Of a DNA stretch of 64,000 nucleotides, positions 1,359 to 49,651 are shown one piece after another. The notes beneath the pieces are model-generated. The model was not told the DNA's origin. It saw only the letters and a list, made by a program, of their open reading frames with translations, and ran no database searches. How positions within the stretch are numbered: the first letter of the stretch is position 1; each line of letters begins with the position of its first letter. This stretch comes from Escherichia coli (GTDB taxonomy: Bacteria > Pseudomonadota > Gammaproteobacteria > Enterobacterales > Enterobacteriaceae): NCBI RefSeq assembly GCF_016026235.1, contig NZ_CP065613.1; one strand, written 5' to 3'. The translations under genes and the position numbers were made by a program.

Positions 1359-1452
1359 AAATAGTTGCCCTGTCAGACTTGCAGGCAGACTTTGCAGGAT
1401 TTCGGCGGGAGTTGCAAGTCAGGGTGCCAGACCGGCACCCTGAGCGAAGGCA

Positions 1453-2970
1453 TCATCCTTCGTTATGCATTTCGAGATTTTCCACTTCGTTCTGACGTTG
1501 CACTGCTTTGGCGTCGTCATTACGTAAAGTATCGAGGAAATCGAGGTAGCCCTGATCAACATCTTTGGTGACGTAGACGCCGTTGAACACCGAGCATTCA
1601 AACTGCTGGATATCCGGGTTTTCAGCGCGAACGGCGTCGATCAGATCGTTCAGATCCTGGAAAATCAACCCGTCAGCACCGATGATCTGGCGAATTTCAT
1701 CTACTTCGCGACCGTGAGCGATCAGTTCCGTAGCGCTCGGCATATCGATACCGTAAACGTTCGGGAAGCGAATTTCCGGTGCCGCAGAAGCGAGGTACAC
1801 TTTCTTCGCTCCGGCTTCGCGTGCCATCTCGATAATCTGCTCAGAAGTGGTGCCACGGACGATGGAGTCGTCGACCAGCAGGACGTTTTTATCGCGGAAC
1901 TCGGCGCGGTTGGCGTTCAGTTTACGGCGCACGGACTTACGACGCAGCTGCTGGCCCGGCATGATGAAGGTGCGGCCAACATAGCGGTTTTTAACGAAGC
2001 CCTGGCGGTATGGTTTGCCCAGAATACGAGCAATTTCCAGCGCGATATCACACGAGGTTTCCGGAATAGGGATCACCACGTCGATATCCAGATCTTCCCA
2101 TTCGCGGGCAATTTTCTCACCCAGTTTCGTGCCCATATTCACACGTGCGCTGTAAACGGAAATTTTGTCGATGAACGAGTCCGGGCGGGCAAAGTATACA
2201 TACTCAAACAGGCACGGATTGCTGACCGGATTGTCAGCACATTGACGGGTAAACAACTGCCCTTCTTCAGTGATGTAAATCGCTTCGCCCGGCGCGACGT
2301 CACGCAGGAAATCAAAGCCCAGCGTATCGAGCGCTACGCTTTCGGAAGCGACCATATATTCTGTGCGGTTCTCGTCAATATCACGTTTTCCCAGAACCAG
2401 CGGACGAATACCGTTTGGATCGCGGAAAGCAACCATACCGTGGCCGATAATCATCGCCACACAGGCATACGCGCCGCGGATTAAGCGGTTTGTAGCAGCG
2501 ATGGCGGCGAAAATGTTGTCGGCTTCCAGCGGGTAGTGGCGGAAGTTGTCCAGCTCGCTGGCGAAGATATTAAGCAGAATTTCCGAGTCGGAAGTGGTGT
2601 TGATGTGGCGGCGTTTTTCTTCAAACAGTTTTTTGCGCAACTCGTGAGCGTTGGTCAGATTGCCGTTGTGGGCAAGCGTAATGCCATACGGGGAGTTAAC
2701 GTAAAACGGCTGCGCTTCAGAGGCGCTGGAGCTGCCAGCCGTAGGGTAACGCACATGACCAATGCCCATATTGCCCTGCAAACGCTGCATATGGCGAGCT
2801 TCAAATACATCGCTCACCAGCCCGTTCGCTTTACGCAAACGGAAGCAGTTATTGGCATCTATGGTGATGATGCCGGCGGCATCCTGACCGCGATGCTGAA
2901 GCACCGTTAAGGCATCATAAATCGACTGGTTAACCGGCATAACACCGGCGATACCGACAATACCGCACAT
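1453..2970 (-). CDS. purF: Amidophosphoribosyltransferase
   Basis: 505-aa ORF starting MCGIVGIAG (N-terminal Cys amidotransferase motif); PRTase domain. Confidence 0.95.
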
Positions 2971-3006
2971 ACGTCTTTTTCCTCGTTAAGCCACATCTCA
3001 GAGCAC

Positions 3007-3495
3007 TTACGCTCTGGGCAAGAAACTTGACGAGCTTTGCAGATAATCAAAAAACCATCTGATGATAAAACTGAACTGCGGGATCAGCTGTGATTTGCTC
3101 CAGTCTTCGCTTTTCGACACCCCGGTAAAGGAGTCGAGAAAGAAGAGAATGGCAGCAACAATCAACACACCGCGCAACGCACCGAAACAGACGCCCAGCA
3201 CCCGATCGGTGCCTGACAACCCCGTTTTCTCCACCAGCTGGCCTATCACGAAGTTCACGATAGCACCAACGATCAGGGTAGCGATAAATAGTACCGCGAT
3301 GGCAATCCCATTTCGAACCAGTTCGTCTTCAAAGCCCGTAAACCAGACTGACAGGTAAGTGTAGTAATGACTGGCAACAAAGAAAGCACACCCCCATGTC
3401 ACCAGCGATAACGCTTCACGAACAAAGCCGCGGATCAGGCTAACCAGAGAGGAAAAAGCAATCACCGCGATTATGGCGTAATCAATCCAGACCAT
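3007..3495 (-). CDS. cvpA: Colicin V production membrane protein
   Basis: 162-aa hydrophobic ORF MVWIDYAIIAVIAFSSLVSLIRGF...; position upstream of purF in the same operon. Confidence 0.9.
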   Translation of the reverse strand: MVWIDYAIIAVIAFSSLVSLIRGFVREALSLVTWGCAFFVASHYYTYLSVWFTGFEDELVRNGIAIAVLFIATLIVGAIVNFVIGQLVEKTGLSGTDRVLGVCFGALRGVLIVAAILFFLDSFTGVSKSEDWSKSQLIPQFSFIIRWFFDYLQSSSSFLPRA

Positions 3496-3552
3496 ATGTG
3501 TCCCACGATTTTACGCCCTGTCATCCTGTTCGGGGCGCATTCTAACAGAAAA

Positions 3553-3568
3553 AGAAAACGTTTGCGTA
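3553..3568. promoter_or_regulatory. Putative PurR operator upstream of cvpA-purF-ubiX
   Basis: AGAAAACGTTTGCGTA matches the PurR box palindrome (core AAACGTTT), about 58 bp upstream of the cvpA start. Confidence 0.55.
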
Positions 3569-3660
3569 GGGATTTCCTTCCCGCGCATCAATAAAAATGG
3601 CGCTGAAAAAATATTCAACGCCATCGACTTTTTATGCCTTTGCGGCATCGTGCAATGCGT

Positions 3661-4020
<360 letters not shown>

Positions 4021-4026
4021 ACCGTA

Positions 4027-4689
4027 TTAATTCGGCGTGTAGCCCATCACCACGCCGCTCAAACCAGAGATCTGCTTCAGTTCGCCAAGCGAACCTTTCA
4101 GCTTATCTTTCGAGGCATCTGGCCCAACCAGAATACGGGTAATTTTACCCTGCACTGGCGTGGATGGCGACGTATAAACCCGATAACCGGCACCGCGCAG
4201 CTTACCGACAATCTCATTCACTTTATCGGCATTTTTCAGCGCGCCCAGTTGCACAACATAGGCTTTACCCGTTGGCGCTGCTTTTTCTTCCACGACCGGC
4301 TTCGGTTCTGGCTTCGGCGCAGGTGGTGCTTCAACCTTCGGCTTAGGCGGCTCCACCGGTTTCGGCTTCGGTGGGGCGACCGGTGCAGGTTCCGGTTCAA
4401 ACTCGGTGTTATTGGCTGCAATAGTGGCCGGATCGAGCGACGGTGCTGCGGCATCACCTGCCCGCACCTCTTCCGCTGCGCCTTCCGGCGGCTGCGTCGG
4501 CAACGCCTGGGTGGCGGCTGGCATCATATCAGGCTCATCACGATCGCCCGCTTTCGGCACCAGCGGGATAGCCGCGAACTCATCCTGATAATGTTTTTTC
4601 TGCCCGTCCAGCAGCCCAGGAAGTACAATCACCCCCAGCGCCACCAGCACGATCGTGCCCACTAACCGATTCTGAAACTTACTTGCCAC
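4027..4689 (-). CDS. dedD: Cell division protein DedD (SPOR domain)
   Basis: ORF with GTG start at 4689 giving (M)ASKFQNRLVGTIVLVALG...; Pro/Lys/Glu-rich linker and C-terminal SPOR-like region; overlaps the folC stop. Confidence 0.85.
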   Translation of the reverse strand: MASKFQNRLVGTIVLVALGVIVLPGLLDGQKKHYQDEFAAIPLVPKAGDRDEPDMMPAATQALPTQPPEGAAEEVRAGDAAAPSLDPATIAANNTEFEPEPAPVAPPKPKPVEPPKPKVEAPPAPKPEPKPVVEEKAAPTGKAYVVQLGALKNADKVNEIVGKLRGAGYRVYTSPSTPVQGKITRILVGPDASKDKLKGSLGELKQISGLSGVVMGYTPN

Positions 4690-5947
4690 CGCTTCTCCTC
4701 GCGTCAATCACTTCCATGACATGTGCGACCGTGTGGAAAGAACCACACACCAGCACGGTGTCTTCCGCTTTAGCGTCCGCCATTGCGGCATCCCATGCCT
4801 GCGCAACGCTATCAAATGATTTGCCGTTACCCAAATGCTCAAGCAGTTGTTCTGCCGTGGCACCGCGCGGCCCTTCCAGTGGCGCACAATACCAGTCATC
4901 AACCACGCTTTTCAACCAGGCCAGAGTTCCGGCAATATCTTTATCATGTAGCATACCGATAACCGCCAGCACGCGCCCGTTTTTCGGTAGCGCTTTCATA
5001 CGCCCGGTGAGATATTCCGCCGCATGTGGATTATGCGCGACATCAAAAATAACGCGTGGCGACTCGCTCACAATCTGGAAACGTCCCGGCAAAATTGCGC
5101 TGGCAATCCCGTCGCGAATGGCATTTTCACTAACCTCCAGCCCGCTGGCACGCAGTGCCGCCAGCGCCGTTGCGGCATTCGGTTGCGGGACAAGCGGCAA
5201 CGGCAGGTTTTCCAGCGTGCCGTGAGCATCGCTAAACGCCCAGTCATGATCGGTGACGGAATAGTTCCACTCAACGCCCCGACGTTGTAACAGTGCACCT
5301 TTTTCCTGCGCCACATCAGCAATGGTAGAAGGCATTTCCGGCTCACCGACAATTGCCGGTTTTTCGCTGCGAAAGATGCCTGCTTTCTCGCGACCAATAC
5401 TTTCGCGATCTGGCCCCAGCCAGTCGGTATGATCCAGCGCAATACTGGTTACTACCGCGACATCGGCGTCGACAATATTGGTTGCGTCCAGACGACCGCC
5501 CAGCCCTACTTCCAGAATCACCACGTCAAGTTGTGCCTGTTTGAACAGCCACAACGCCGACAGCGTACCGTACTCGAAATAGGTCAGGGAAATATCACCG
5601 CGTGCCGATTCAATCTCCGCAAAAGAGGCGGTGTGGGCCGATTCCGGCAATTCCTGACCCTGCATACGTACGCGCTCGGTATAACGCACCAGATGAGGCG
5701 AACTGTAGACGCCCACTTTGTACCCTGCCGCCATCAGAATCGACTCCAGCGTACGGCAGGTGGTGCCTTTGCCATTCGTACCCGCAACGGTAAACACAAA
5801 TGGCGCTGGTTTCAGGACGCCAAGACGCGCCGCGACCTGGCTCACGCGCTCAAGGCCGAGATCGATAGTTTTACTGTGCAGGTTTTCCAGATAAGAAAGC
5901 CACGAAGCCAGAGGCGACGCGGCTTGAGGAGTGCGTTTGATAATCAT
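4679..5947 (-). CDS. folC: Dihydrofolate synthase / folylpolyglutamate synthase
   Basis: 422-aa ORF MIIKRTPQAASPLASWLSYLENLH...TVAGTNGKGTT recognised as FolC. Confidence 0.9.
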   Translation of the reverse strand: MIIKRTPQAASPLASWLSYLENLHSKTIDLGLERVSQVAARLGVLKPAPFVFTVAGTNGKGTTCRTLESILMAAGYKVGVYSSPHLVRYTERVRMQGQELPESAHTASFAEIESARGDISLTYFEYGTLSALWLFKQAQLDVVILEVGLGGRLDATNIVDADVAVVTSIALDHTDWLGPDRESIGREKAGIFRSEKPAIVGEPEMPSTIADVAQEKGALLQRRGVEWNYSVTDHDWAFSDAHGTLENLPLPLVPQPNAATALAALRASGLEVSENAIRDGIASAILPGRFQIVSESPRVIFDVAHNPHAAEYLTGRMKALPKNGRVLAVIGMLHDKDIAGTLAWLKSVVDDWYCAPLEGPRGATAEQLLEHLGNGKSFDSVAQAWDAAMADAKAEDTVLVCGSFHTVAHVMEVIDARRSGGK

Positions 5948-6016
5948 GGTATCCGCTGATTCGTTACGGTGAGAATAGCAAAAGGGCAGAGCCAGTGGCC
6001 CTGCCCTTATCAGTTA

Positions 6017-6931
6017 TCAGGCCTCAGGTTCCTGATCCGGTACCGGGGGTACCACTACGCCTTCACGCGGCGCTTCAGGATTCGGCGCTGGCAGATTCAT
6101 CAACTTCGCCAGAATGCTCGCCAGTTTCAGGCGCATTTCCGGACGACGGACGATCATGTCGATCGCGCCTTTCTCGATCAGGAATTCACTGCGCTGGAAT
6201 CCTGGCGGCAGTTTTTCGCGAACGGTCTGTTCGATAACACGCGGACCGGCAAAGCCGATTAACGCTTTAGGTTCAGCGATGTTGAGATCGCCCAGCATGG
6301 CGAAACTTGCAGAAACACCGCCCATCGTCGGGTCGGTCAGCACGGAGATGTACGGCAAGCCGCGCTCCTGCATTTTTGCCAGTGCCGCAGAGGTTTTCGC
6401 CATCTGCATCAGCGACATCAGTGCTTCCTGCATACGTGCGCCACCAGAGGCGGAGAAGCAGATCAGCGGGCAGTTATCTTCCAGCGCCTGCTCAACGGCA
6501 CGCACGAAACGTGCACCCACAACAGACCCCATTGAACCGCCCATAAAGGCGAACTCGAATGCCGCAGCGACAACCGGCATTCCATACAGAGTGCCTTTCA
6601 TCACCACCAGCGCATCTTTTTCGCCGGTTTCTTTCTGCGCAGATGCCAGACGGTCTTTATACTTCTTGGAGTCACGAAACTTCAGCACATCTTTCGGCTC
6701 AAGCTCGCTACCCAGCTCCACAAGGCTTCCTTCATCTAACAGGCTATGCAGGCGATTACGCGCTGTCATACGCATGTGATGGTCACACTTCGGACAGACC
6801 TCAAGATTACGTTCCAGCTCAGCGCGGTATAAAACCTGACCGCAGCTATCACACTTAGTCCACACCCCTTCAGGAATGCTCGCCTTGCGGGTGGGAGTAA
6901 TGTTGCTTTTAATTCGTTCAATCCAGCTCAT
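6017..6931 (-). CDS. accD: Acetyl-CoA carboxylase carboxyltransferase beta subunit
   Basis: Start set at the internal ATG (6931) giving [35 protein letters not shown]... with the Zn-ribbon CxxC..CxxC; 304 aa. Confidence 0.9.
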
Positions 6932-7086
6932 TAGGGACCTTTCTGTCTGAACCTGGTTCGATGCCAGTTTTATCTTTGGGGACGCATAATGCCATTTTTG
7001 CCCCCAACAGACCATGAATGTTGCACATTAAAACATAACAGCCCGAAACTTTGGATAAAAAAGTGGTCGAACCGCGGAGTTACTTT

Positions 7087-7746
7087 TTATTTTGCGGCGC
7101 GTGCCGCAGCGCGTTTGTGACGGATTATTTCGATGACGCCCGGCAAAATAGAAACCACAATAATCCCGACGATCAGCAGCTTAAGGTTATCCTGAACCAT
7201 CGGGATTGTACCGAAGAAATAGCCTGCGTAGGTAAAAAGCAGTACCCACAACAGTGCGCCGATCACGTTATAAGCAGCGAAATGACGGTACGACATGTGG
7301 CCCATTCCCGCAACAAACGGGGCGAACGTTCTGACGATCGGCACAAAACGGGCGAGAATAATCGTTTTGCCGCCATGTTTCTCATAAAACTGATGGGTTT
7401 TGTCGAGATAACTGCGACGGAAAATTTTCGAATTGGGATTACTGAATAACTTTTCACCGAACAACCGCCCGATAGTGTAATTGACCGCGTCACCCACAAT
7501 CGCGGCGATCAGCATCAGCACCACCATCATATGGACGTTGAGATCGTTGGTTTCCAGTGATGCCAACGCTCCGGCAACAAACAGCAATGAATCACCCGGT
7601 AAAAACGGCGTTACCACCAGACCGGTTTCACAGAACAAAATTAAGAACAAAATGGCATAAACCCAGACGCCGTACTCCGCGACCAGCTCTGCCAGATGCA
7701 CGTCAATGTGCAGGATAAAATCGATGAGGAAATAAATCAGGTCCAT
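7087..7746 (-). CDS. dedA: DedA family inner membrane protein
   Basis: 219-aa [33 protein letters not shown]... recognised as DedA. Confidence 0.9.
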
Positions 7747-25460: not shown

Positions 25461-28112
25461 TTAATTGGCGGATACCGATACCGGCGCTTCCGTTGGCATC
25501 ACCTGCTGGGTCTGCTCCTGGATCACCGGCTTAATTTGATGAGGCATCGAAGGAGATATCGCCCCTGTTTGTTGACATGGTAGTAACAGGCCATTGAACA
25601 GATCGGCTGGCAGTGGGTCCGGCAGATGAATATCACAGTGGGCCACACCGCCCCATGAAACGATCATATGCTCGCCAGGTTTGACACCCGCGAGGTAGAC
25701 GTTGCCGTCATCATCAACCAGACCGACGTTCTGCGCGTTGTCATTTTTCACTTCCGCGCCAAACGGCGGATGACTGCCATCTTGCAGGCGCAATACCGCC
25801 ATCGCTTTTTGCCCGCTGATAACCGAAAACTTACGGTAGCCAATGGCTCCTTCGGTAAGCGTCGCCTGCACCACAGACTGGGTGGCTTCGGCGTTTTCCG
25901 GCAGGTTGTTAAGGTCGATATAGGCCTGATTGCGGTAGTAGTTGTTGACGTCTGCCACCACGGTCTTACCGAACATATTGGTGTAAACCGCCGCGCCATT
26001 TCCTTCCACCGGAACACCAGCCACGCCATCGGCATCAATCAGCAGGCGCGTACCGCCCATATTCTGGGTACGGTGGAGCGCGTCACCCTGCGCGGTCAGC
26101 GTCGCGCCGCCCTGTAAGGAAATACCTGCCGAGGTGTACTGTCCTTCATGGTAGTTGGCGCTGAGGTCCACCTGCGCCAGCGAGCCATCGTGGCTGTAAT
26201 AGCCGTCAACGCTGGAGTGTTTGTCACTGGTCCCCACGTTCAGCTGGTAGTGAGTTGCGTCATCGACACGGCTGAAATACCCCACCTGGCTGCTGTCCGA
26301 ACCGCTGCCGTAGTTGCCGTTATAGCTGATGGTGCTGCTGTCACCCCACGGCATACTGAGCGATATATACACACCTTTATCGGCCTGGTTATCATACTCG
26401 TAGCGGTATCCGGTCATGGAAATGCTCATATTGCGGATACTGCCTAGGTTGAAGTAGTGCGAGAGCATGACGTTGTAGTTGGTCTGTTCGTCGCGATCCC
26501 AGTAGGTATGGCGGGTGTAGTTGAGATAAACAGACACACCGGCATCCCTGAAGTTCTGGTTATAGGTGGCGGTGTACATCTCTTTGTCGTTGCCGGTGCG
26601 CACCATTTCGCTGTCGCTGGCATCGAGATACTCGCTCATGGTCATGAAGTTCTCTTCCGAGAAGCGGTATCCGGCAAAAGTGACGCGGCTGTTCAGTTCA
26701 TCGAAGTCTTTGGAATAGCTCACGCGAAACGAGTTACCGTCCAGTGAACCTTTACCGTAGGCGGTCTCTTTATCCAGGCGGGTATGCGAGTGGGTGATAT
26801 CAAAGGCGACTGCGCCAAAGACAGACAGGTCGCGACCGACGCCAAGCGCCGCCGACTGATAGTGTTCATCTGCCAGCGCCCCGCCGTACAGCGACCAGCC
26901 GTTGGCAATCCCCCATGAAGCTTCGCCGCCGGAGAAGAAACCGCCCTCAACATGATGCCCCCACTCCTGCGGGCGGCCCATCATCAGCTTATAGCGCACC
27001 TGGCCGGGGCGGGTCAGGAACGGCATCGAGGCGGTGTTGATGTCATATTCCTGCACCTGGCCGTTCTGTTCTTCAATGCGGATGTGCAGTGTACCGGAGA
27101 CAGAATCGCCAAGATCCTGGATGCGGAACGGCCCCGCCGGAACCTGCGTTTCGTAAATCACGCGGCCCATCTGGCTGACGGTCACTTTCGCGGTGGTGTG
27201 CGCCACGCCGGAGATATCCGGCGCATAGCCGCGCAGATTCGGCGGCAACATTTGATCGTCGGTGCTGATACTGCCACCCACGTAGTTAAAGCCGTCGAAA
27301 ATATCAGAATTAAGGTAGTCTTCGCCAAGGCCAAGTTTGGCTTTTAGCGACGGTAAGGCCCGCCAGGCGTAGTAGCGGCTCCACTCCCAGTTTTTTTGCG
27401 TGTCATCACCGTTGATAACATCGTCATCATTGCTTTTGCTGTGCTGGTAGTCAGTCTGCCAGTCGGCTCGCAGACGCCATGCGCCGAGGTTAACCCCAAC
27501 CGTTCCGTTGCCGCTGATTTCATTGCTGTCATCCCCGCCATTTTCTTCATGTCGTGTCTGGGCGGTAATATTGTAGTCAGCAATTAAACCAGAAATACCG
27601 TCATCCCAGCGTGAAGGTGGATCCCAGTTGATGTCGGTATATTCAAGGTAAGCCTGGGGTAATGAAATGACTAACGCTGACTGACTCAGGTCAGCTTTAA
27701 TATCAATGCCTTCCAGTTGACCGAGTTTCAGGCATTTGCCGTCGTGGATCCATTGCAGGTTTTTTGCCACATCCTCTTTTAAGCCAAACTGCGCGACCAG
27801 TTCAGGCGTCAGGCAGGCATAGGTTTTACTGGCATCGTTCTCAGAGGCGTACCAGTAAATATCGTATTCTTCCGCCAGCGGCTGTTTATTTAGTTGAACC
27901 TGTAAATTGTATTTACCAGGTTCGACATATCCCTGGCTGGAAAATCGCTTCAGATCGATTTTTGTGTCGCCTTTTAACTCCAGAAAACGGGAATCAAACT
28001 GAATTTCATCTTCAGCCCAGGCATTGACATAACACCCTGACATTGCCAGCGCAATGCAGCAGGGAAGCACCCGCAGTCGGAAAAGAGAATGGTCAGGCAT
28101 ACACGTATCCAT
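25461..28112 (-). CDS. yfcU: Outer membrane fimbrial usher, intact 883-aa reading frame
   Basis: Single uninterrupted 883-aa ORF with usher-like length and composition (long Gly/Tyr/Asn/Ser-rich beta-barrel region); located between chaperone and major subunit. Confidence 0.85.
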   Translation of the reverse strand: MDTCMPDHSLFRLRVLPCCIALAMSGCYVNAWAEDEIQFDSRFLELKGDTKIDLKRFSSQGYVEPGKYNLQVQLNKQPLAEEYDIYWYASENDASKTYACLTPELVAQFGLKEDVAKNLQWIHDGKCLKLGQLEGIDIKADLSQSALVISLPQAYLEYTDINWDPPSRWDDGISGLIADYNITAQTRHEENGGDDSNEISGNGTVGVNLGAWRLRADWQTDYQHSKSNDDDVINGDDTQKNWEWSRYYAWRALPSLKAKLGLGEDYLNSDIFDGFNYVGGSISTDDQMLPPNLRGYAPDISGVAHTTAKVTVSQMGRVIYETQVPAGPFRIQDLGDSVSGTLHIRIEEQNGQVQEYDINTASMPFLTRPGQVRYKLMMGRPQEWGHHVEGGFFSGGEASWGIANGWSLYGGALADEHYQSAALGVGRDLSVFGAVAFDITHSHTRLDKETAYGKGSLDGNSFRVSYSKDFDELNSRVTFAGYRFSEENFMTMSEYLDASDSEMVRTGNDKEMYTATYNQNFRDAGVSVYLNYTRHTYWDRDEQTNYNVMLSHYFNLGSIRNMSISMTGYRYEYDNQADKGVYISLSMPWGDSSTISYNGNYGSGSDSSQVGYFSRVDDATHYQLNVGTSDKHSSVDGYYSHDGSLAQVDLSANYHEGQYTSAGISLQGGATLTAQGDALHRTQNMGGTRLLIDADGVAGVPVEGNGAAVYTNMFGKTVVADVNNYYRNQAYIDLNNLPENAEATQSVVQATLTEGAIGYRKFSVISGQKAMAVLRLQDGSHPPFGAEVKNDNAQNVGLVDDDGNVYLAGVKPGEHMIVSWGGVAHCDIHLPDPLPADLFNGLLLPCQQTGAISPSMPHQIKPVIQEQTQQVMPTEAPVSVSAN

Positions 28113-39371: not shown

Positions 39372-39446
39372 GTCCTCTTAGTTAAATGGATATAACGAGC
39401 CCCTCCTAAGGGCTAATTGCAGGTTCGATTCCTGCAGGGGACACCA
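39372..39446 (+). tRNA. argW: tRNA-Arg (anticodon CCU)
   Basis: GTCCTCTTAGTTAAATGGATATAACGAGCCCCTCCTAAGGGCTAATTGCAGGTTCGATTCCTGCAGGGGACACCA: 75 nt, cloverleaf-compatible, anticodon loop CUCCUAA, 3' CCA encoded. Confidence 0.92.
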
Positions 39447-39887
39447 GATACCCTTCAAACCAAATCTACCTTCACCCCGTCAAAGATGGGTTTGGCAGCA
39501 CATTTGCCTTATATCTACTCATTTTTACTGCAACAGGTTGAAATCTCAGCACTGTCAGAAAGTGCTGATGACTAAACAGCCCTGGGCCGGGCGATGTAAC
39601 CATCACACAGAATCCTGATAGCGAAATATGGCGTGACTCGATACTTCACTCCGCAATGCATTCCTTGATGAATTCGCAGGCCCGTGATACACGGGAAAGG
39701 TCGCTGAATGACGACAATGTCCTGGAAATCAGCGAACCGTGTATCCGGAGTACATTTGAGCGACTGTACCAGAACATGAATGAGGTGTTTGGATTAGGCG
39801 ATTATTAGCAGGGCTAAGCATTTTACTATTATTATTTTCCGGTTGAGGGATATGGAGATATCGACAACAACCGGAAAAAGTTTACGT

Positions 39888-41135
39888 CTATATTGCTGAA
39901 GGTACAGGCGTTTCCATAACTATTTGCTCGCGTTTTTTACTCAGGAAGAAAATGCCAAATAGCAACATCAGGCAGACAATACCCGAAATTGCGAAGAAAA
40001 CTGTCTGGTAGCCTGCGTGGTCAAAGAGTATCCCAGTCGGCGTTGAAAGCAGCACAATCCCAAGCGAACTGGCAATTTGAAAACCAATCAGAAAGATCGT
40101 CGACGACAGGCGCTTATCAAAGTTTGCCACGCTGTATTTGAAGACGGATATGACACAAAGTGGAACCTCAATGGCATGTAACAGCTTCACTAATGAAATA
40201 ATCCAGGGGTTAACAAACAGCGCGCAGGAAAGGATACGCAACGCCATAATCACAACACCGATAAGTAATGCATTTTTTGGCCCTACCCGATTCACAAAGA
40301 AAGGAATAATCGCCATGCACAGCGCTTCGAGTACCACCTGGAATGAGTTGAGATAACCATACAGGCGCGTTCCTACATCGTGTGATTCGAATAAACCTGC
40401 ATAAAAGACAGGAAAAAGTTGTTGATCAAAAATGTTATAGAAAGACCACGTCCCAACAATAAATATGACGAAAACCCAGAAGTTTCGATCCTTGAAAACT
40501 GCGATAAAATCCTCTTTTTTTACCCCTCCCGCATCCGCCGCTACGCACTGGTGATTCTTATCTTTAAAACACATGTTGATCATCATAAATACAGCGCCAA
40601 ATAGCGAGACCAACCAGAAGTTGATATGGGGACTGATACTAAAAAATATGCCGGCAAAGAACGCGCCAATAGCATAGCCAAAAGATCCCCAGGCGCGCGC
40701 TGTTCCATATTCGAAATGAAAATTTCGCGCCATTTTTTCGGTGAAGCTGTCAAGCAAACCGCATCCCGCCAGATACCCCAGGCAAAAAAAGAGCGCCCCC
40801 AGAATTAGACCTACAGAAAAATTGCTTTGCAGTAATGGTTCATAAACGTAAATCATAAACGGTCCGGTCAAGACCTGGATGAAACTCATACACCAGATGA
40901 GCGGTTTCTTCAGACCGAGTTTATCCTGAACGATGCCGTAGAACATCATAAATAGAATGCTGGTAAACTGGTTGACCGAATAAAGTGTACCTAATTCCGT
41001 CCCTGTCAACCCTAGATGTCCTTTCAGCCAAATAGCGTATAACGACCACCACAGCGACCAGGAAATAAAAAAGAGAAATGAGTAACTGGATGCAAAACGA
41101 TAGTACGCATTTCTGAATGGAATATTCAGTGCCAT
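39888..41135 (-). CDS. cscB: Sucrose:H+ symporter (LacY-like MFS permease)
   Basis: 415-aa ORF MALNIPFRNAYYRFASSYSFLFFISWSLWWSLYAIWLKGHLGL... recognised as CscB. Confidence 0.88.
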   Translation of the reverse strand: MALNIPFRNAYYRFASSYSFLFFISWSLWWSLYAIWLKGHLGLTGTELGTLYSVNQFTSILFMMFYGIVQDKLGLKKPLIWCMSFIQVLTGPFMIYVYEPLLQSNFSVGLILGALFFCLGYLAGCGLLDSFTEKMARNFHFEYGTARAWGSFGYAIGAFFAGIFFSISPHINFWLVSLFGAVFMMINMCFKDKNHQCVAADAGGVKKEDFIAVFKDRNFWVFVIFIVGTWSFYNIFDQQLFPVFYAGLFESHDVGTRLYGYLNSFQVVLEALCMAIIPFFVNRVGPKNALLIGVVIMALRILSCALFVNPWIISLVKLLHAIEVPLCVISVFKYSVANFDKRLSSTIFLIGFQIASSLGIVLLSTPTGILFDHAGYQTVFFAISGIVCLMLLFGIFFLSKKREQIVMETPVPSAI

Positions 41136-41206
41136 AATTACCTGCCTGTCGTTAAAAAATTCACGTCCTATTTAGAGATAAGAGCGACTTCGCCGTTTAC
41201 TTCTCA

Positions 41207-42117
41207 CTATTCCAGTTCTTGTCGACATGGCAGCGCTGTCATTGCCCCTTTCGCCGTTACTGCAAGCGCTCCGCAACGTTGAGCGAGATCGATAATTCGT
41301 CGCATTTCTCTCTCATCTGTAGATAATCCCGTAGAGGACAGACCTGTGAGTAACCCGGCAACGAACGCATCTCCCGCCCCCGTGCTATCGACACAATCCA
41401 CAGACATTCCAGCAAAATGGTGAACTTGTCCTCGATAACAGACCACCACCCCTTCTGCACCTTTAGTCACCAACAGCATGGCGATCTCATACTCTTTTGC
41501 CAGGGCGCATATATCCCGATCGTTCTGTGTTTTTCCACTGATAAGTCGCCATTCTTCTTCCGAGAGCTTGACGACATCCGCCAGTTGTAGCGCCTGCCGC
41601 AAACACAAGCGGAGCAAATGCTCGTCTTGCCATAGATCTTCACGAATATTGGGATCGAAGCTGACAAAACCTCCGGCATGCCGGATCGCCGTCATCGCAG
41701 TAAATGCGCTGGTACGCGAAGGCTCGGCAGACAACGCAATTGAACAGAGATGTAACCATTCGCCATGTCGCCAGCAGGGCAAGTCTGTCGTCTCTAAAAA
41801 AAGATCGGCACTGGGGCGAACCATAAACGTAAATGAACGTTCCCCTTGATCGTTCAGATCGACAAGCACCGTGGATGTCCGGTGCCATTCATCTTGCTTC
41901 AGATACGTGATATCGACTCCCTCAGTTAGCAGAGTTCTTTGCATTAACGCACCAAAAGGATCATCACCGACCCGACCTATAAACCCACTTATTCCGCCTA
42001 ATCTGGCGATTCCCACCGCAACGTTAGCTGGCGCGCCGCCAGGACAAGGCAGTAGGCGCCCGTCTGATTCTGGCAAGAGATCTACTACCGCATCCCCTAA
42101 AACCCATACTTTGGCTG
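41207..42117 (-). pseudogene. cscK: Fructokinase cscK body; the ATG and first nucleotide of codon 2 are separated from it by IS4 and lie at 43556..43559
   Basis: Frame reads ...(I)TAKVWVLGDAVVDLLPESDGRLLPCPGGAPANVAVGIARLGG... (pfkB family) up to the IS4 left end; splicing out IS4 and one target-duplication copy restores ATG TCA GCC AAA GTA TGG = MSAKVW. Confidence 0.8.
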
Positions 42118-43543
42118 TAATGCCGATCAGTTAAGGATCAGTTGACCGATCCAGTGGCTGTGTAAGAATCCGGAAACGCTCACTTGTTTCCGGATTTTTT
42201 TATGCACATTGGACAGGCTCTTGATCTGGTATCCCGTTACGATTCTCTGCGTAACCCACTGACTTCTCTGGGGGATTACCTCGACCCCGAACTCATCTCT
42301 CGTTGCCTTGCCGAATCAGGTACTGTAACGCTACGCAAGCGCCGTCTTCCCCTCGAAATGATGGTCTGGTGTATTGTTGGCATGGCGCTTGAGCGTAAAG
42401 AACCTCTTCACCAGATTGTGAATCGCCTGGACATCATGCTGCCGGGCAATCGCCCCTTCGTTGCCCCCAGTGCCGTTATTCAGGCCCGCCAGCGCCTGGG
42501 AAGTGAGGCTGTCCGCCGCGTGTTCACGAAAACAGCGCAGCTCTGGCATAACGCCACGCCGCATCCGCACTGGTGCGGCCTGACCCTGCTGGCCATCGAT
42601 GGTGTGTTCTGGCGCACACCGGATACACCAGAGAACGATGCAGCCTTCCCCCGCCAGACACATGCCGGGAACCCGGCGCTCTACCCGCAGGTCAAAATGG
42701 TCTGCCAGATGGAACTGACCAGCCATCTGCTGACGGCTGCAGCCTTCGGCACGATGAAGAACAGCGAAAATGAGCTTGCTGAGCAACTTATAGAACAAAC
42801 CGGCGATAACACTCTGACGTTAATGGATAAAGGTTATTACTCACTGGGACTGTTAAATGCCTGGAGCCTGGCGGGAGAACACCGCCACTGGATGATACCT
42901 CTCAGAAAGGGAGCGCAATATGAAGAGCTCAGAAAACTGGGTAAAGGCGATCATCTGGTGAAGCTGAAAACCAGCCCGCAGGCACGAAAAAAGTGGCCGG
43001 GACTGGGAAATGAAGTGACAGCCCGCCTGCTGACCGTGACGCGCAAAGGAAAAGTCTGCCATCTGCTGACGTCGATGACGGACGCCATGCGCTTCCCCGG
43101 AGGAGAAATGGCGGATCTGTACAGTCATCGCTGGGAAATCGAACTGGGATACAGGGAGATAAAACAGACGATGCAACTGAGCAGGCTGACGCTGAGAAGT
43201 AAAAAGCCGGAGCTTGTGGAGCAAGAGCTGTGGGGTGTCTTACTGGCTTATAATCTGGTGAGATATCAGATGATTAAAATGGCGGAACATCTGAAAGGTT
43301 ACTGGCCGAATCAACTGAGTTTCTCAGAATCATGCGGAATGGTGATGAGAATGCTGATGACATTGCAGGGCGCTTCACCGGGACGTATACCGGAGCTGAT
43401 GCGCGATCTTGCAAGTATGGGACAACTTGTGAAATTACCGACGAGAAGGGGAAGGGCCTTCCCGAGAGTGGTAAAGGAGAGGCCCTGGAAATACCCCACA
43501 GCCCCGAAAAAGAGCCAGTCAGTTGCTTAACTGACTGGCATTA
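42118..43543 (+). mobile_element. IS4 insertion sequence, complete at 1426 bp, flanked by a 12-bp target duplication
   Basis: Terminal inverted repeats TAATGCCGATCAGTTAAGG (42118..) and CTTAACTGACTGGCATTA (..43543); direct repeat ATACTTTGGCTG at 42106..42117 and 43544..43555; encodes the IS4 transposase. Confidence 0.92.
42202..43530 (+). CDS. insG: IS4 transposase
   Basis: 442-aa [52 protein letters not shown]... recognised as IS4 InsG; DDE transposase. Confidence 0.92.
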
Positions 43544-43773
43544 ATACTTTGGCTGACATTTTTTTCCCTTAAATTCATCTGACTTACGCATAGTGATAAA
43601 CCTCTTTTTCGCAAAATCGTCATGGATTTACTAAAACATGCATATTCGATCACAAAATGTCATAGTTAACGTTAACATTTGTGATATTCATCGCATTATG
43701 AAAGTAAGGGACTTTATTTTTATAAAAGTTAACGTTAACAATTCACCAAATTTGCTTAACCAGGATGATTAAA

Positions 43774-45207
43774 ATGACGCAATCTCGATTGCATGCGGCG
43801 CAAAACGCACTAGCAAAACTTCATGAGCACCGGGGTAACACTTTCTATCCCCATTTTCACCTCGCGCCTCCTGCCGGGTGGATGAACGATCCAAACGGCC
43901 TGATCTGGTTTAACGATCGTTATCACGCGTTTTATCAGCATCACCCGATGAGCGAACACTGGGGGCCAATGCACTGGGGACATGCCACCAGCGACGATAT
44001 GATCCACTGGCAGCATGAGCCTATTGCGCTAGCGCCAGGAGACGATAATGACAAAGATGGGTGTTTTTCAGGTAGTGCTGTCGATGACAATGGTGTCCTC
44101 TCACTTATCTACACCGGACACGTCTGGCTCGATGGTGCAGGTAATGACGATGCAATTCGCGAAGTACAATGTCTGGCTACCAGTCGGGATGGTATTCATT
44201 TCGAGAAACAGGGTGTGATCCTCACTCCACCAGAAGGAATCATGCACTTCCGCGATCCTAAAGTGTGGCGTGAAGCCGACACATGGTGGATGGTAGTCGG
44301 GGCGAAAGACCCAGGCAACACGGGGCAGATCCTGCTTTATCGCGGCAGTTCATTACGTGAATGGACTTTCGATCGCGTACTGGCCCACGCTGATGCGGGT
44401 GAAAGCTATATGTGGGAATGTCCGGACTTTTTCAGCCTTGGCGATCAGCATTATCTGATGTTTTCCCCGCAGGGAATGAATGCCGAGGGATACAGTTACC
44501 GAAATCGCTTTCAAAGTGGCGTAATACCCGGAATGTGGTCGCCAGGACGACTTTTTGCACAATCCGGGCATTTTACTGAACTTGATAACGGGCATGACTT
44601 TTATGCACCACAAAGCTTTGTAGCGAAGGATGGTCGGCGTATTGTTATCGGCTGGATGGATATGTGGGAATCGCCAATGCCCTCAAAACGTGAAGGCTGG
44701 GCAGGCTGCATGACGCTGGCGCGCGAGCTATCAGAGAGCAATGGCAAACTCCTACAACGCCCGGTACACGAAGCTGAGTCGTTACGCCAGCAGCATCAAT
44801 CTATCTCTCCCCGCACAATCAGCAATAAATATGTTTTGCAGGAAAACGCGCAAGCAGTTGAGATTCAGTTGCAGTGGGCGCTGAAGAACAGTGATGCCGA
44901 ACATTACGGATTACAGCTCGGCACTGGAATGCGGCTGTATATTGATAACCAATCTGAGCGACTTGTTTTGTGGCGGTATTACCCACACGAGAATTTAGAC
45001 GGCTACCGTAGTATTCCCCTCCCGCAGCGTGACACGCTCGCCCTAAGGATATTTATCGATACATCATCCGTGGAAGTATTTATTAACGACGGGGAAGCGG
45101 TGATGAGTAGTCGAATCTATCCGCAGCCAGAAGAACGGGAACTGTCGCTTTATGCCTCCCACGGAGTGGCTGTGCTGCAACATGGAGCACTCTGGCAACT
45201 GGGTTAG
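43774..45207 (+). CDS. cscA: Sucrose-6-phosphate hydrolase / invertase (GH32)
   Basis: ATG at 43774 gives MTQSRLHAAQNALAKLHEHRGNTFYPHFHLAPPAGWMNDPNGLIWF... (NDPNG GH32 motif), 477 aa. Confidence 0.9.
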   Translation: MTQSRLHAAQNALAKLHEHRGNTFYPHFHLAPPAGWMNDPNGLIWFNDRYHAFYQHHPMSEHWGPMHWGHATSDDMIHWQHEPIALAPGDDNDKDGCFSGSAVDDNGVLSLIYTGHVWLDGAGNDDAIREVQCLATSRDGIHFEKQGVILTPPEGIMHFRDPKVWREADTWWMVVGAKDPGNTGQILLYRGSSLREWTFDRVLAHADAGESYMWECPDFFSLGDQHYLMFSPQGMNAEGYSYRNRFQSGVIPGMWSPGRLFAQSGHFTELDNGHDFYAPQSFVAKDGRRIVIGWMDMWESPMPSKREGWAGCMTLARELSESNGKLLQRPVHEAESLRQQHQSISPRTISNKYVLQENAQAVEIQLQWALKNSDAEHYGLQLGTGMRLYIDNQSERLVLWRYYPHENLDGYRSIPLPQRDTLALRIFIDTSSVEVFINDGEAVMSSRIYPQPEERELSLYASHGVAVLQHGALWQLG

Positions 45208-45214
45208 CATAATA

Positions 45215-46210
45215 TCAGGTGGAACAACGGATCAACAGCGGGCAAGGGATCCGCGTCACACTTCCCCCTTCACGACCTTCAATAATATGCAATGCAGCTT
45301 CCCGCCCGATAATGTCATGTGGAAGCTGAATTGTGGTCAGCGGCGGTAAAAACAGATGCCCGACACCAACCAGATTATCAAAGCCCATTACGGCGACATC
45401 CTGCGGGATACGTACCCCCTTCGCCAGGAGAACCTGATAAGCCACAAAGGCTGCGCGATCGTTACCACATATCAGAACATCAAAATCTGGTTTGCCCGAT
45501 TTGAAGTGGTCATTGAGTAAACTTGCGAGATCGGTGTAGTGATCATCACCTGTTGCCATGTGAAATTGTTTCACCTCAGCCAGATCTCGTCCAGCATCAC
45601 GCCAGGCCTGCTCAAATCCCTGCCGACGATACCCCGTTGCCAACGCACTTTCCGGTAGCCAGAAGCATAACGGTTGACGATAGCCCGCCGCGAGCAAATG
45701 CTGTGTTGATTCATATTGTGCAGTGTAATCATCAGGGATATAACTGGGTAACGCTGGGTCATCCGCCACACAGTTAGCCAATACAATATTTTCACCATAC
45801 AGAGACTCAGGTAGCGTGATATGTCGCAGCCCCATTGTAGTATAGATAATGCCATCCGGACGGTGGGCAAGCAGCTGACGTGCCGCGCGGGCAGCGTCAT
45901 CTTCAGAAAAAATATTGATTAAAAAACTATTCCAGCCGAACTCGCTGGCGGTTTGCTCAATGGCAAGCAGAATATCAACAGAGAAAGGAGTGGTAGCCGT
46001 GTCCTGCGCCAGCACGGCGAGAGTCGACGGCTTACGTCCTTGAGCGCGCATCTTACGGGCGGAAAGATCAGGAACATAATTCAGGGTCTGGATTGCCTGC
46101 AATACGCGGTCACGCGTTGCAGGACGCACAGATTCTGCATTATGCATCACCCGGGAGACTGTCATCATCGACACTCCCGCCAGGCGTGCGACATCCTTTA
46201 ATGAAGCCAT
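45215..46210 (-). CDS. cscR: LacI-family sucrose operon repressor
   Basis: Start set at the ATG (46210) giving MASLKDVARLAGVSMMTVSRVMHNAESVRPATRDRVLQAIQTLNYVPD... (HTH LacI), 331 aa; the ORF track starts 62 codons upstream. Confidence 0.88.
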   Translation of the reverse strand: MASLKDVARLAGVSMMTVSRVMHNAESVRPATRDRVLQAIQTLNYVPDLSARKMRAQGRKPSTLAVLAQDTATTPFSVDILLAIEQTASEFGWNSFLINIFSEDDAARAARQLLAHRPDGIIYTTMGLRHITLPESLYGENIVLANCVADDPALPSYIPDDYTAQYESTQHLLAAGYRQPLCFWLPESALATGYRRQGFEQAWRDAGRDLAEVKQFHMATGDDHYTDLASLLNDHFKSGKPDFDVLICGNDRAAFVAYQVLLAKGVRIPQDVAVMGFDNLVGVGHLFLPPLTTIQLPHDIIGREAALHIIEGREGGSVTRIPCPLLIRCST

Positions 46211-46428
46211 ATCCAAGCCGTTTGCCGTAAAACGGGCACTGTAGCAGAAACAGACGTCACTGGCGAGATCCAACGCCCTATCACCTGTCACGGCAATACA
46301 ATAAAAAATAACAATAATTGCCGAATAATTGTACCCAATTCCGCCTCTGTTCTCGCCAACGAGTAACCATATAGGCAAGTAAGTAAAACATGCCAACTGG
46401 CATCGCCAACCTGGAGAAGAAAATATAA

Positions 46429-46659
46429 ATATGGATCATTGTGCTGCCGCTGTATCCCGACATCAGCCCGGAAATTATTGCGATTGCTATCGGTTCAGGT
46501 GCAATTGGCTGCACGATCGTTACGGACTCGCTTTTCTGGCTGGTGAAACAATATTGCGGCGCTACGCTCAATGAAACATTTAAATACTATACGACAGCGA
46601 CATTTATCGCTTCAGTCGTCGCTCTGGCGGGCACATTCCTGCTGTCATTTATCATCTAA
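46429..46659 (+). pseudogene. dsdX: 3' remnant of the D-serine permease gene dsdX (last ~76 codons only)
   Basis: Frame reads ...[76 protein letters not shown], recognised as the DsdX (GntP family) C-terminus; an in-frame stop lies immediately upstream and no N-terminal part is present. Confidence 0.7.
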
Positions 46660-46676
46660 GCGCAAAGAGACGTACT

Positions 46677-48005
46677 ATGGAAAACGCTAAAATGAACTCG
46701 CTCATCGCCCAGTATCCGTTGGTAAAGGATCTGGTTGCTCTTAAAGAAACCACCTGGTTTAATCCTGGCACGACCTCATTGGCTGAAGGTTTACCTTATG
46801 TTGGCCTGACCGAACAGGATGTTCAGGACGCCCATGCGCGCTTATCCCGTTTTGCACCCTATCTGGCAAAAGCATTTCCTGAAACTGCTGCCACTGGGGG
46901 GATTATTGAATCAGAACTGGTTGCCATTCCGGCTATACAAAAACGGCTGGAAAAGGAATATCAACAACCGATCAGCGGGCAACTGTTACTGAAAAAAGAT
47001 AGCCATTTGCCCATTTCCGGCTCCATAAAAGCACGCGGCGGGATTTATGAAGTCCTGGCACACGCAGAAAAACTGGCTCTGGAAGCGGGGTTGCTGACGC
47101 TTGATGATGACTACAGCAAACTGCTGTCTCCGGAGTTTAAACAGTTCTTTAGCCAATACAGCATTGCTGTGGGCTCAACCGGAAATCTGGGGTTATCAAT
47201 CGGCATTATGAGCGCCCGCATTGGCTTTAAGGTGACAGTGCATATGTCTGCTGATGCCCGGGCATGGAAAAAAGCGAAACTGCGCAGCCATGGCGTTACG
47301 GTCGTGGAATATGAGCAAGATTATGGTGTTGCCGTCGAGGAAGGACGTAAAGCAGCGCACTCTGACCCGAACTGTTTCTTTATTGATGACGAAAATTCCC
47401 GCACGTTGTTCCTTGGGTATTCCGTCGCTGGCCAGCGTCTTAAAGCGCAATTTGCCCAGCAAGGCCGTATCGTCGATGCTGATAACCCTCTGTTTGTCTA
47501 TCTGCCGTGTGGTGTTGGCGGTGGTCCTGGTGGCGTCGCATTCGGGCTTAAACTGGCGTTTGGCGATCATGTTCACTGCTTTTTTGCCGAACCAACGCAC
47601 TCCCCTTGTATGTTGTTAGGCGTCCATACAGGATTACACGATCAGATTTCTGTTCAGGATATTGGTATCGACAACCTTACCGCAGCGGATGGCCTTGCAG
47701 TTGGTCGCGCATCAGGCTTTGTCGGGCGGGCAATGGAGCGTCTGCTGGATGGCTTCTATACCCTTAGCGATCAAACCATGTATGACATGCTTGGCTGGCT
47801 GGCGCAGGAAGAAGGTATTCGTCTTGAACCTTCGGCACTGGCGGGTATGACCGGACCTCAGCGCGTGTGTGCATCAGTAAGTTACCAACAGATGCACGGT
47901 TTCAGCGCAGAACAACTGCGTAATACCACTCATCTGGTGTGGGCGACGGGAGGTGGAATGGTGCCGGAAGAAGAGATGAATCAATATCTGGCAAAAGGCC
48001 GTTAA
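46677..48005 (+). CDS. dsdA: D-serine dehydratase (PLP-dependent)
   Basis: 442-aa [34 protein letters not shown]... recognised as DsdA. Confidence 0.93.
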
Positions 48006-48112
48006 TAACGTTTCAACGCAGCATCGCCATCCTTTCCCTGGGTGAGCGATGCTGCCGATGGCGCAGACTTAAGATCCCCAGTCTTACCCGCTATAACCCC
48101 CTGCTTTTACCA

Positions 48113-49651
48113 TCACCCAACGCCTTTCGCTGTAAACGGCGGTTTCGCAAACCACACCAAAACCGTAAGTAAGATAAAAGCAATAGCCGCCATACGGAAA
48201 ATCTCATTTGCAGAAATAGAAAGTGACTGCTGGGTTATTTCATTATTAATTTCATTAAGAACTCCTGAAAGCGAACCATAGTATTTATCCATAATTTGTG
48301 ACGATGAATTAAACACGGGGTTAAATTGATCGATGGTTGCTGTCAACTGACTATGGTGTAACGATTCGCGTCGTCCCCACAGCGTCATTGTCAACGACGT
48401 ACCAACGGATCCTGACAAGGTACGAAAAAAATTACTCATACTCGAGGCATTGGCAAATTTATTATCTGGCAAGCCTGAAAACGAAATCGTTGTTAAGGGT
48501 AAAAAGAAACAGGCAACGGCGAATCCCTGAAAAAACTGCGGCAAAATGATACCTGTAAAATCAATCGTTGGCATAAATGTCACAGAACGCCAGTAATAGC
48601 AAACCGCATACATCAAAAAACTAAATGTCACCAACACCCGCATGTCAATTTTGTTGCCATAACGTCCTATCAAAGGCGAAATCAATAGTGGCATGATGCC
48701 GATGGGCGCATAAGCAAGTCCGGCCCATATCGCATTATACCCCATCGTTTCCTGGAGTAACTGCGGCATAAGGACTATCGCTCCAGAGTAAAATAAATAC
48801 GCGCAGGTGATACTCACAATACCAATGGTGAAATTACGGGACTTAAACAAACTGAGGTCAAGAATCGGGTTCTCTGAGGTCGACTCCCAAATGACTAAAG
48901 AGATCAGAGAAATAACTGATACTACTGTTAATATTATTATTGTACTCGAGTTGAACCAATCCAGATCGCGCCCTTTATCAAGCATAATTTGCAAGCCACC
49001 AACACCGAGCACTAACAGGGTCAGTCCTGGTAGATTCATTTTGACCGGTGAAGTCTCAGTTTCTCTTCCTTTAAGTAAGGTTAAGCATAATGTCAGGACG
49101 ATAATCCCCATAGGGACATTGATTAAAAATATCCAACCCCAGCTAAAGTTATCGCAAATATATCCGCCTAATATCGGCCCACATATCGGAGCGATAATCA
49201 CGGTCATTGACCATAATGCCAGAGCAAATGTTCTTTTTTCTGGTGGATAATTCCTTAATAATAAACTCTGTGACAGTGGAATTAACGGCCCTGCCATTAA
49301 CCCCTGAACGACTCTAAAAAATATCAGCACATCAAGATTGGTCGATAAACTACACATTAATGAAGACAGCGAAAAAAAAGTGACTGAAAGTAAAAATAAC
49401 CTTAATTCGCCTATTCTTTGTGCCAGCCTGCCGGTAACAGGGATCGCAATGGCATTTGCTACGCCAAACGAGGTGATAACCCAGGTGCCTTCGTCTGTTG
49501 ATGCTCCCAGAAAGCCAGATATTGTCGGTATTGCGACGTTAGAAATAGTGGAATCCAACATTTGCATAAACGTCGCTAATGACAATGCAATAGTGACGCA
49601 CCATAACGTCCCACCGGTTAATGGTGCCGGAGTTGATTTAGTGATTGCCAT
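48113..49651 (-). CDS. emrY: MFS multidrug efflux pump (EmrB paralog)
   Basis: 512-aa 14-TMS-type ORF MAITKSTPAPLTGGTLWCVTIALSLATFMQMLDSTISNVAIP... Confidence 0.9.
   Translation of the reverse strand: MAITKSTPAPLTGGTLWCVTIALSLATFMQMLDSTISNVAIPTISGFLGASTDEGTWVITSFGVANAIAIPVTGRLAQRIGELRLFLLSVTFFSLSSLMCSLSTNLDVLIFFRVVQGLMAGPLIPLSQSLLLRNYPPEKRTFALALWSMTVIIAPICGPILGGYICDNFSWGWIFLINVPMGIIVLTLCLTLLKGRETETSPVKMNLPGLTLLVLGVGGLQIMLDKGRDLDWFNSSTIIILTVVSVISLISLVIWESTSENPILDLSLFKSRNFTIGIVSITCAYLFYSGAIVLMPQLLQETMGYNAIWAGLAYAPIGIMPLLISPLIGRYGNKIDMRVLVTFSFLMYAVCYYWRSVTFMPTIDFTGIILPQFFQGFAVACFFLPLTTISFSGLPDNKFANASSMSNFFRTLSGSVGTSLTMTLWGRRESLHHSQLTATIDQFNPVFNSSSQIMDKYYGSLSGVLNEINNEITQQSLSISANEIFRMAAIAFILLTVLVWFAKPPFTAKGVG

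Follow-up and report, generated by a model that had tools for sequence, protein, structure and literature searches.

Can a strain of Escherichia coli still make use of an intact D-serine deaminase gene, dsdA, once the activator gene dsdC and most of the permease gene dsdX have gone? The question is raised by a 64,000-nucleotide (64-kb) stretch of E. coli DNA, hereafter the window, in which dsdA adjoins a set of sucrose (csc) genes. The niche that an E. coli strain prefers is known to be marked by the csc/dsd switch at the tRNA gene argW: dsd strains, typically urinary or meningitic, use D-serine, whereas for csc strains, typically intestinal and with EHEC among them, it is a poison, and they shut down type III secretion. 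The window carries the common csc allele of the argW–dsdA region; we consider it highly probable that its dsdA gene is devoid of inducible expression, and a D-serine-negative and D-serine-sensitive strain is to be expected. Recognizing the allele permits a confident prediction of phenotype and brings no new biology; the csc-for-dsdCX arrangement and its interpretation are already known from work of 1979, 2002 and 2006. Our additions are only an IS4 hit on cscK–cscB in this strain and a correction concerning trans-activation by DsdC.

From left to right, the region comprises argW, an open reading frame (ORF) with a DUF4942 domain, cscB, cscK, an IS4 element, the cscK/cscA control region, cscA, cscR, a spacer, a dsdX remnant, dsdA, emrY–emrK and evgA–evgS. 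The left edge of this variable island is argW, a plus-strand tRNA-Arg(CCU) gene (39372..39446) called by ARAGORN, matched by Rfam RF00005 at 63 bits as the sole Rfam hit in 38000..49000, and annotated as tRNA-Arg in the nearest complete genome, FDAARGOS_943. Between argW and cscB, the ORF list contains a short plus-strand frame of 50 codons (39656..39808) whose FDAARGOS_943 counterpart, a 153-bp coding sequence, is annotated as a DUF4942 domain-containing protein; it reads as the remnant of an element integrated at argW. The minus strand then encodes cscB (39888..41135), a sucrose:H+ symporter of 415 amino acids with an intact ORF (TIGR00882 oligosaccharide MFS transporter, 587 bits), and cscK (41207..42117), a fructokinase gene without its first 4 nucleotides (NF006957, 471 bits). 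Beyond the IS4 element and the control region, cscA (43771..45207, plus strand), the intact gene of a sucrose hydrolase (invertase), matches TIGR01322 at 479 bits and is annotated as such in FDAARGOS_943 and O157:H7, and cscR (45215..46210, minus strand), an intact gene for a LacI-family sucrose repressor of 331 amino acids, is recognized by its LacI-family matches and labelled ‘sucrose operon repressor CscR’ in several genomes. All four Csc proteins match NCBIfam models, and their genes are colinear with the annotation of FDAARGOS_943 and O157:H7, two genomes that share the CscR accession WP_001301925.1. The block sits between argW and dsdA–emrY (emrY at 48113..49651, downstream of dsdA, from the ORF list and the FDAARGOS_943 annotation), which is the position of the csc/dsd replacement allele, and the start codon of cscR faces dsdA.

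The interval from the start of cscR to dsdA (46211..46676) measures 466 bp, close to the roughly 470 bp stated in a first-pass annotation made from the DNA alone. Its first 231 bp (46211..46441), delimited by alignment to K-12 and O157:H7, are the right-end spacer of the csc block; this is cscR upstream DNA, shows no K-12 dsdX homology in the alignment, and replaces dsdC, the dsdC–dsdX intergenic promoter and dsdX codons 1–373. K-12 homology sets in precisely at 46442 and extends, at 98% identity, as far as 54010, the end of the K-12 locus compared. The breakpoint, between CATTG and TGCTGCCG (…GGATCATTG on its left, TGCTGCCGCTG… on its right), is base-for-base the same in O157:H7.

What follows the breakpoint is a plus-strand pseudogene fragment of dsdX (46442..46659). 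By tblastn, it corresponds to K-12 DsdX residues 374–445 at 98.6% identity, ending in the stop codon at 46657–46659, so that 72 codons plus the stop (16% of the protein) are left of the full-length 445-amino-acid permease that a functional dsdCXA system has. The match to NF007395 likewise covers positions 374–445 of 445 and, at 146 bits, falls well short of the cutoff of 618; in csc-type genomes the stump bears the NCBI annotation of a partial DsdX pseudogene with its N terminus missing. An in-frame TAA (46426–46428) is followed by four non-dsdX codons, giving an open frame of 76 codons; the earlier description of the last ~76 codons of dsdX, with an in-frame stop just upstream and no start, is accurate for this frame, 72 codons of which are homologous. 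The open frame contains no ATG, and the GTG at 46441 is a chance product of the junction, at a place where K-12 has ATG. No further part of dsdX lies within the 64-kb window, and a tblastn search of the whole window with K-12 DsdC returned no match at E ≤ 1e-3. The divergent LysR-type dsdC and its intergenic promoter, the other parts of a functional dsdCXA system, are absent from the 64-kb window, and the nearest complete genome also lacks dsdC at megablast sensitivity. With K-12 homology present only from 46442 onwards, this bears out the initial observation that dsdC and the dsdXA promoter are gone and that the start region of cscR stands in their place. One minus-strand ORF across the junction (46281..46571, 96 amino acids) was rejected as a gene; it spans the recombination junction, is antisense to the dsdX stump and is almost certainly spurious. 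It encloses two minus-strand terminator-like hairpins (46411..46395 and 46403..46390), which belong to the spacer upstream of cscR.

The closest known system is the replacement described for EC3132, E. coli W and O157:H7 EDL933 (Alaeddinoglu and Charles 1979; Jahreis et al. 2002; Moritz and Welch 2006; Connolly et al. 2015; O’Boyle et al. 2020), with which the window shares the argW/dsdA–emrY position, the order cscB–cscK–cscA–cscR, the dsdX breakpoint, the 72-codon stump, an intact dsdA and the absence of dsdC, and from which it differs by an IS4 element 4 nucleotides into cscK. In EDL933, at the recombination hotspot argW, the csc locus has taken the place of dsdC and of part of dsdX (PMC4366372, PMC7486766), a substitution that these two papers credit to Jahreis et al. 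2002 and Moritz and Welch 2006. The mutual exclusion of chromosomal sucrose use and D-serine use at argW (PMC3032704, PMC11251922, PMC13054288) is traced in PMC11251922 to Alaeddinoglu and Charles 1979, and a triplex PCR on cscR, dsdX and dsdA types the csc versus the dsd state (PMC13054288). Compared with O157:H7, the window spacer lacks 12 bp (ACGAAATTCTCG) at 46272/46273 and carries a few substitutions nearby. Compared with the dsdCXA loci of K-12 and CFT073, dsdA and the last 72 dsdX codons are 98–99% identical and are followed by the same emrY, emrK, evgA and evgS, whereas dsdC, the divergent dsdC/dsdX promoter region and dsdX codons 1–373 are missing from the window.

This arrangement is ordinary: roughly every second complete E. 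coli genome has it. A contiguous cscR–dsdX remnant–dsdA block (window 45200..48010) occurs at 95–100% identity in 2,660 of 5,426 complete genomes, and the remainder mostly have the K-12-type dsdX–dsdA. Together with a junction identical to that of O157:H7, this occurrence points to one ancestral event that spread through the species and not to a private deletion. On this reading, a single ancestral recombination put cscB–cscK–cscA–cscR where dsdC, the control region and dsdX codons 1–373 had been, and its product has since spread through E. coli.

The enzyme itself is sound. The first-pass annotation called dsdA (46677..48005, plus strand) intact at 442 amino acids, and the gene does have 442 codons without an internal stop, encoding a protein that matches TIGR02035 over profile positions 1–431 of 431 with 811.5 bits against a cutoff of 368. 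It is identical at 439 of 442 residues to the crystallized E. coli DsdA (PDB 3SS7), with an unchanged SGSIKARGG segment; the residue that binds PLP is Lys118, and a full-length, above-cutoff match combined with the PLP-lysine motif identifies it as a D-serine ammonia-lyase. Three changes separate it from K-12 DsdA (M87I, Q228H and A392T), and 435 of 442 residues are identical to O157:H7 DsdA, the other 7 being different. A mutation that brought a promoter upstream could, in principle, switch such a gene on.

The issue is therefore one of transcription. DsdC is the essential LysR-type activator of dsdXA (PMC4366372, PMC7486766), without which the dsd system is nonfunctional, and EHEC does not grow on D-serine (PMC7486766). 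Since both dsdC and the dsdC–dsdX intergenic region are deleted, dsdA keeps only activator-independent transcription: normally read from the DsdC-activated dsdX promoter, it would here be transcribed only weakly, D-serine deaminase would not be inducible, and neither growth on D-serine nor freedom from inhibition by it would be expected. The same prediction of a D-serine-sensitive, non-utilizing phenotype, made at first reading from the loss of DsdC-dependent dsdXA transcription, agrees with what has been published for strains that have this allele. EHEC and EPEC grow on D-serine only when given plasmid-borne dsdA, and 95% of diarrhoeagenic strains show no growth on it (PMC4366372); D-serine lowers the growth rate of EHEC in glucose minimal medium from 0.63 to 0.19 per hour (PMC4366372/PMC7486766); and the same csc insertion deprived E. 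coli W of D-serine use (PMC3032704). By analogy, we infer that the EHEC phenotype and the silence of dsdA would carry over to the window strain, with the proviso that EHEC reporter data are not strictly transferable to a spacer that differs from that of O157:H7 by the 12-bp deletion and a few substitutions.

An opposing view is that dsdA is usefully expressed without DsdC, either from a promoter within what remains of dsdX or by transcription that runs on from cscA across the antisense cscR, so that detoxification is not meaningfully impaired. We judge this improbable, even though some expression does seem to persist. A promoter element of dsdA has been reported 115 bp upstream of its start (PMC7486766), a position that falls inside the retained dsdX stump, and knocking out dsdA in EHEC raises basal recA promoter activity (PMC13012123); the two observations together imply that dsdA is not completely silent. 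Of five csc-type lineages sampled, moreover, just one, EPEC E2348/69, has a frameshifted dsdA; the gene is intact in the others (the window, O157:H7, an ST1193 strain and strain MDR_56), and read-through from cscA (ending at 45207) to dsdA would meet just one plus-strand terminator-like site, a weak one at 46625–46644 inside the stump. Against useful expression stand the data from EHEC, which has the same junction: wild-type fragments from the cscA promoter (cscAp) to dsdA give low activity, and D-serine inhibits the strain and does not support its growth (PMC4366372, PMC7486766). In numbers, wild-type fragments upstream of dsdA yielded 63–134 RFU and an activating deletion 2,001 RFU; spontaneous deletions fusing cscAp or z3622p to dsdA raised its mRNA 33-fold and restored D-serine catabolism (PMC7486766). 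EHEC is accordingly described as keeping an intact dsdA allele with no possibility of upregulation (PMC13012123). A sigma-70 consensus scan of both strands of 45100..48300 found 0 matches against 3.8 expected in shuffled sequence, a scan that weak promoters could escape. As for read-through, IS4 separates cscB from its promoter, so sucrose would hardly enter the cell to derepress cscA.

A second way in which the organism might be D-serine-positive is a complete dsdCXA copy elsewhere in its genome, as in many K1 strains. Two dsdCXA copies in some E. coli, many K1 strains among them, are attributed to Moritz and Welch 2006 in the accounts given by PMC7486766 and PMC11251922, the latter of which also mentions a few strains with both csc and dsd entire, and some complete E. 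coli genomes show two to three places for the cscR–dsdX remnant–dsdA query. We examined this by proxy, in the nearest complete genome, in the 25 closest csc-type genomes and in 29 csc-type genomes from an evenly spaced sample. FDAARGOS_943 agrees with the window at 100% identity over 45200–48010 and at 99.9% over the 21 kb compared; dsdA has one place in it, and a chimeric query of csc and K-12 dsdC likewise found only one, so that this genome has no dsdC at megablast sensitivity. The csc-plus-dsdC query had a single place in 24 of the 25 closest genomes, and a query of csc, dsdA, dsdC and dsdX a single place in all 29 sampled genomes; nothing DsdC-like exists in the 64-kb window itself. A second copy is on these grounds very improbable, more so than useful DsdC-independent expression. 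It would also act differently from what was first supposed. The first-pass annotation envisaged an intact dsdC–dsdX elsewhere driving dsdA in trans, which could not happen here because the dsdC–dsdX intergenic promoter/operator region, the target of DsdC, is deleted; a second copy could rescue the strain only through its own dsdA.

Whether the strain gains sucrose use in return is another matter. An IS4 element of 1,426 bp (42118..43543, plus strand) has inserted after the fourth nucleotide of cscK. Its transposase ORF (42184..43530) matches NF033592 at 304 bits, it is bounded by imperfect 18-bp terminal inverted repeats (TAATGCCGATCAGTTAAG and TAATGCCAGTCAGTTAAG), and it is flanked by a 12-bp target duplication, ATACTTTGGCTG, at 42106–42117 and 43544–43555. 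IS4 elements are typically about 1.4 kb long, with 18-bp imperfect terminal inverted repeats, an IS4-family DDE transposase and target duplications of 11–13 bp, and the element agrees with this description in size, inverted repeats, transposase and duplication; its counterpart in other genomes is annotated ‘IS4-like element IS4 family transposase’. The corresponding locus of FDAARGOS_943, 99.9% identical in other respects, has no IS4 and contains the 12-bp target once, at 7342–7353; window positions 36173..42117 align with its positions 1409..7353, and the intact cscK ends there at 7357.

The insertion cuts the first 4 nucleotides of cscK (ATG plus one base), the ribosome-binding site and the promoter from the rest of the gene, and translation across the IS4/cscK junction yields no start codon. 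On the far side, 43544..43770 comprises the divergent cscK/cscA control region and the first 16 nucleotides of cscK, the duplicated target included, as delimited by BLAST against the FDAARGOS_943 locus. In a functional Csc regulon, cscK–cscB are joined to the CscR-controlled promoter; here IS4 lies between them. With cscK–cscB separated from promoter and start codon, the sucrose permease is probably not expressed and the csc sucrose locus probably dead. From the layout of the genes, we infer that the insertion would abolish sucrose uptake, in which case the strain may use neither sucrose nor D-serine via the argW–dsdA locus, having lost the sucrose benefit usually thought to offset lost D-serine use. 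The earlier pairing of a D-serine-negative state with a sucrose locus was correct in that csc genes adjoin dsdA, and overstated in that cscK carries IS4.

The control region contains two perfect 12-bp palindromes, GTTAACGTTAAC, at 43665..43676 and 43728..43739 in the cscK–cscA intergenic DNA, 63 bp apart. A palindrome search found exact copies at those two positions only in the 64 kb, and no copy between cscR and dsdA; the palindromes are candidate CscR operators. IS4 occupies this position in cscK in a handful of further E. coli genomes, and several of these are otherwise diverged (97.6–98.8% identity) and align gap-free across 42106..43555. Either the 12-bp site is an IS4 hotspot, or an IS-bearing csc allele has been spread by recombination.

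A similar combination is known from Shigella csc loci (Stephens et al. 2024; PMC11251922), where cscA and cscR are intact, the cscK/cscB part is interrupted by an IS element and no functional dsd is present; disruptions by IS1, IS3 and IS4 have been reported there (PMC11251922). Unlike in Shigella, cscK and cscB in the window are near-complete ORFs that have lost only their promoter connection and start codon, IS elements are nearly absent from the remainder of the window, and its nearest match is labelled E. coli.

It could be asked why an orphan dsdA should persist at all. One speculative answer is that it is kept by selection, with a DsdC-independent low-level role and as a reserve gene reactivated by promoter-capturing deletions, the window strain representing a double-negative, Shigella-like intermediate. 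We regard this as unlikely, albeit less so than either of the routes to a D-serine-positive strain considered above. If it were true, the role of dsdA might be, for example, to remove D-serine that is endogenous or present in traces and to keep basal SOS signalling lower, and the sucrose-negative, D-serine-negative state would make dsdA-reactivating deletions cost-free. Pairwise dN/dS of dsdA is 0.02–0.09 between distant lineages and 0.19–0.27 between close ones, values that rest on small counts and from which the time spent in the csc context is inseparable. The frameshift in EPEC E2348/69 shows that orphan dsdA does decay in some lineages. In that csc-type B2 strain (locus 1677–3001), dsdA is annotated as frameshifted, and its alignment to the window shows a 4-base gap. 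Across strains, dsdA alleles sort with phylogroup and not with csc/dsd state, with a dS of 0.013 between the csc strain of ST1193 and the dsd strain Nissle and of 0.016 between the window and K-12. Such clustering implies repeated recombinational exchange of csc and dsdCX segments, with a crossover near the junction.

FDAARGOS_943 also differs from the window outside the argW–dsdA region. It has P2-like prophage genes by flk, an IS600 in a yfc fimbrial usher gene and, between fadL and mlaA, an IS1; the window lacks all of these (at about 10834, 28033..28040 and 36173..36180, respectively), so that the window strain is a relative less laden with IS elements than FDAARGOS_943.
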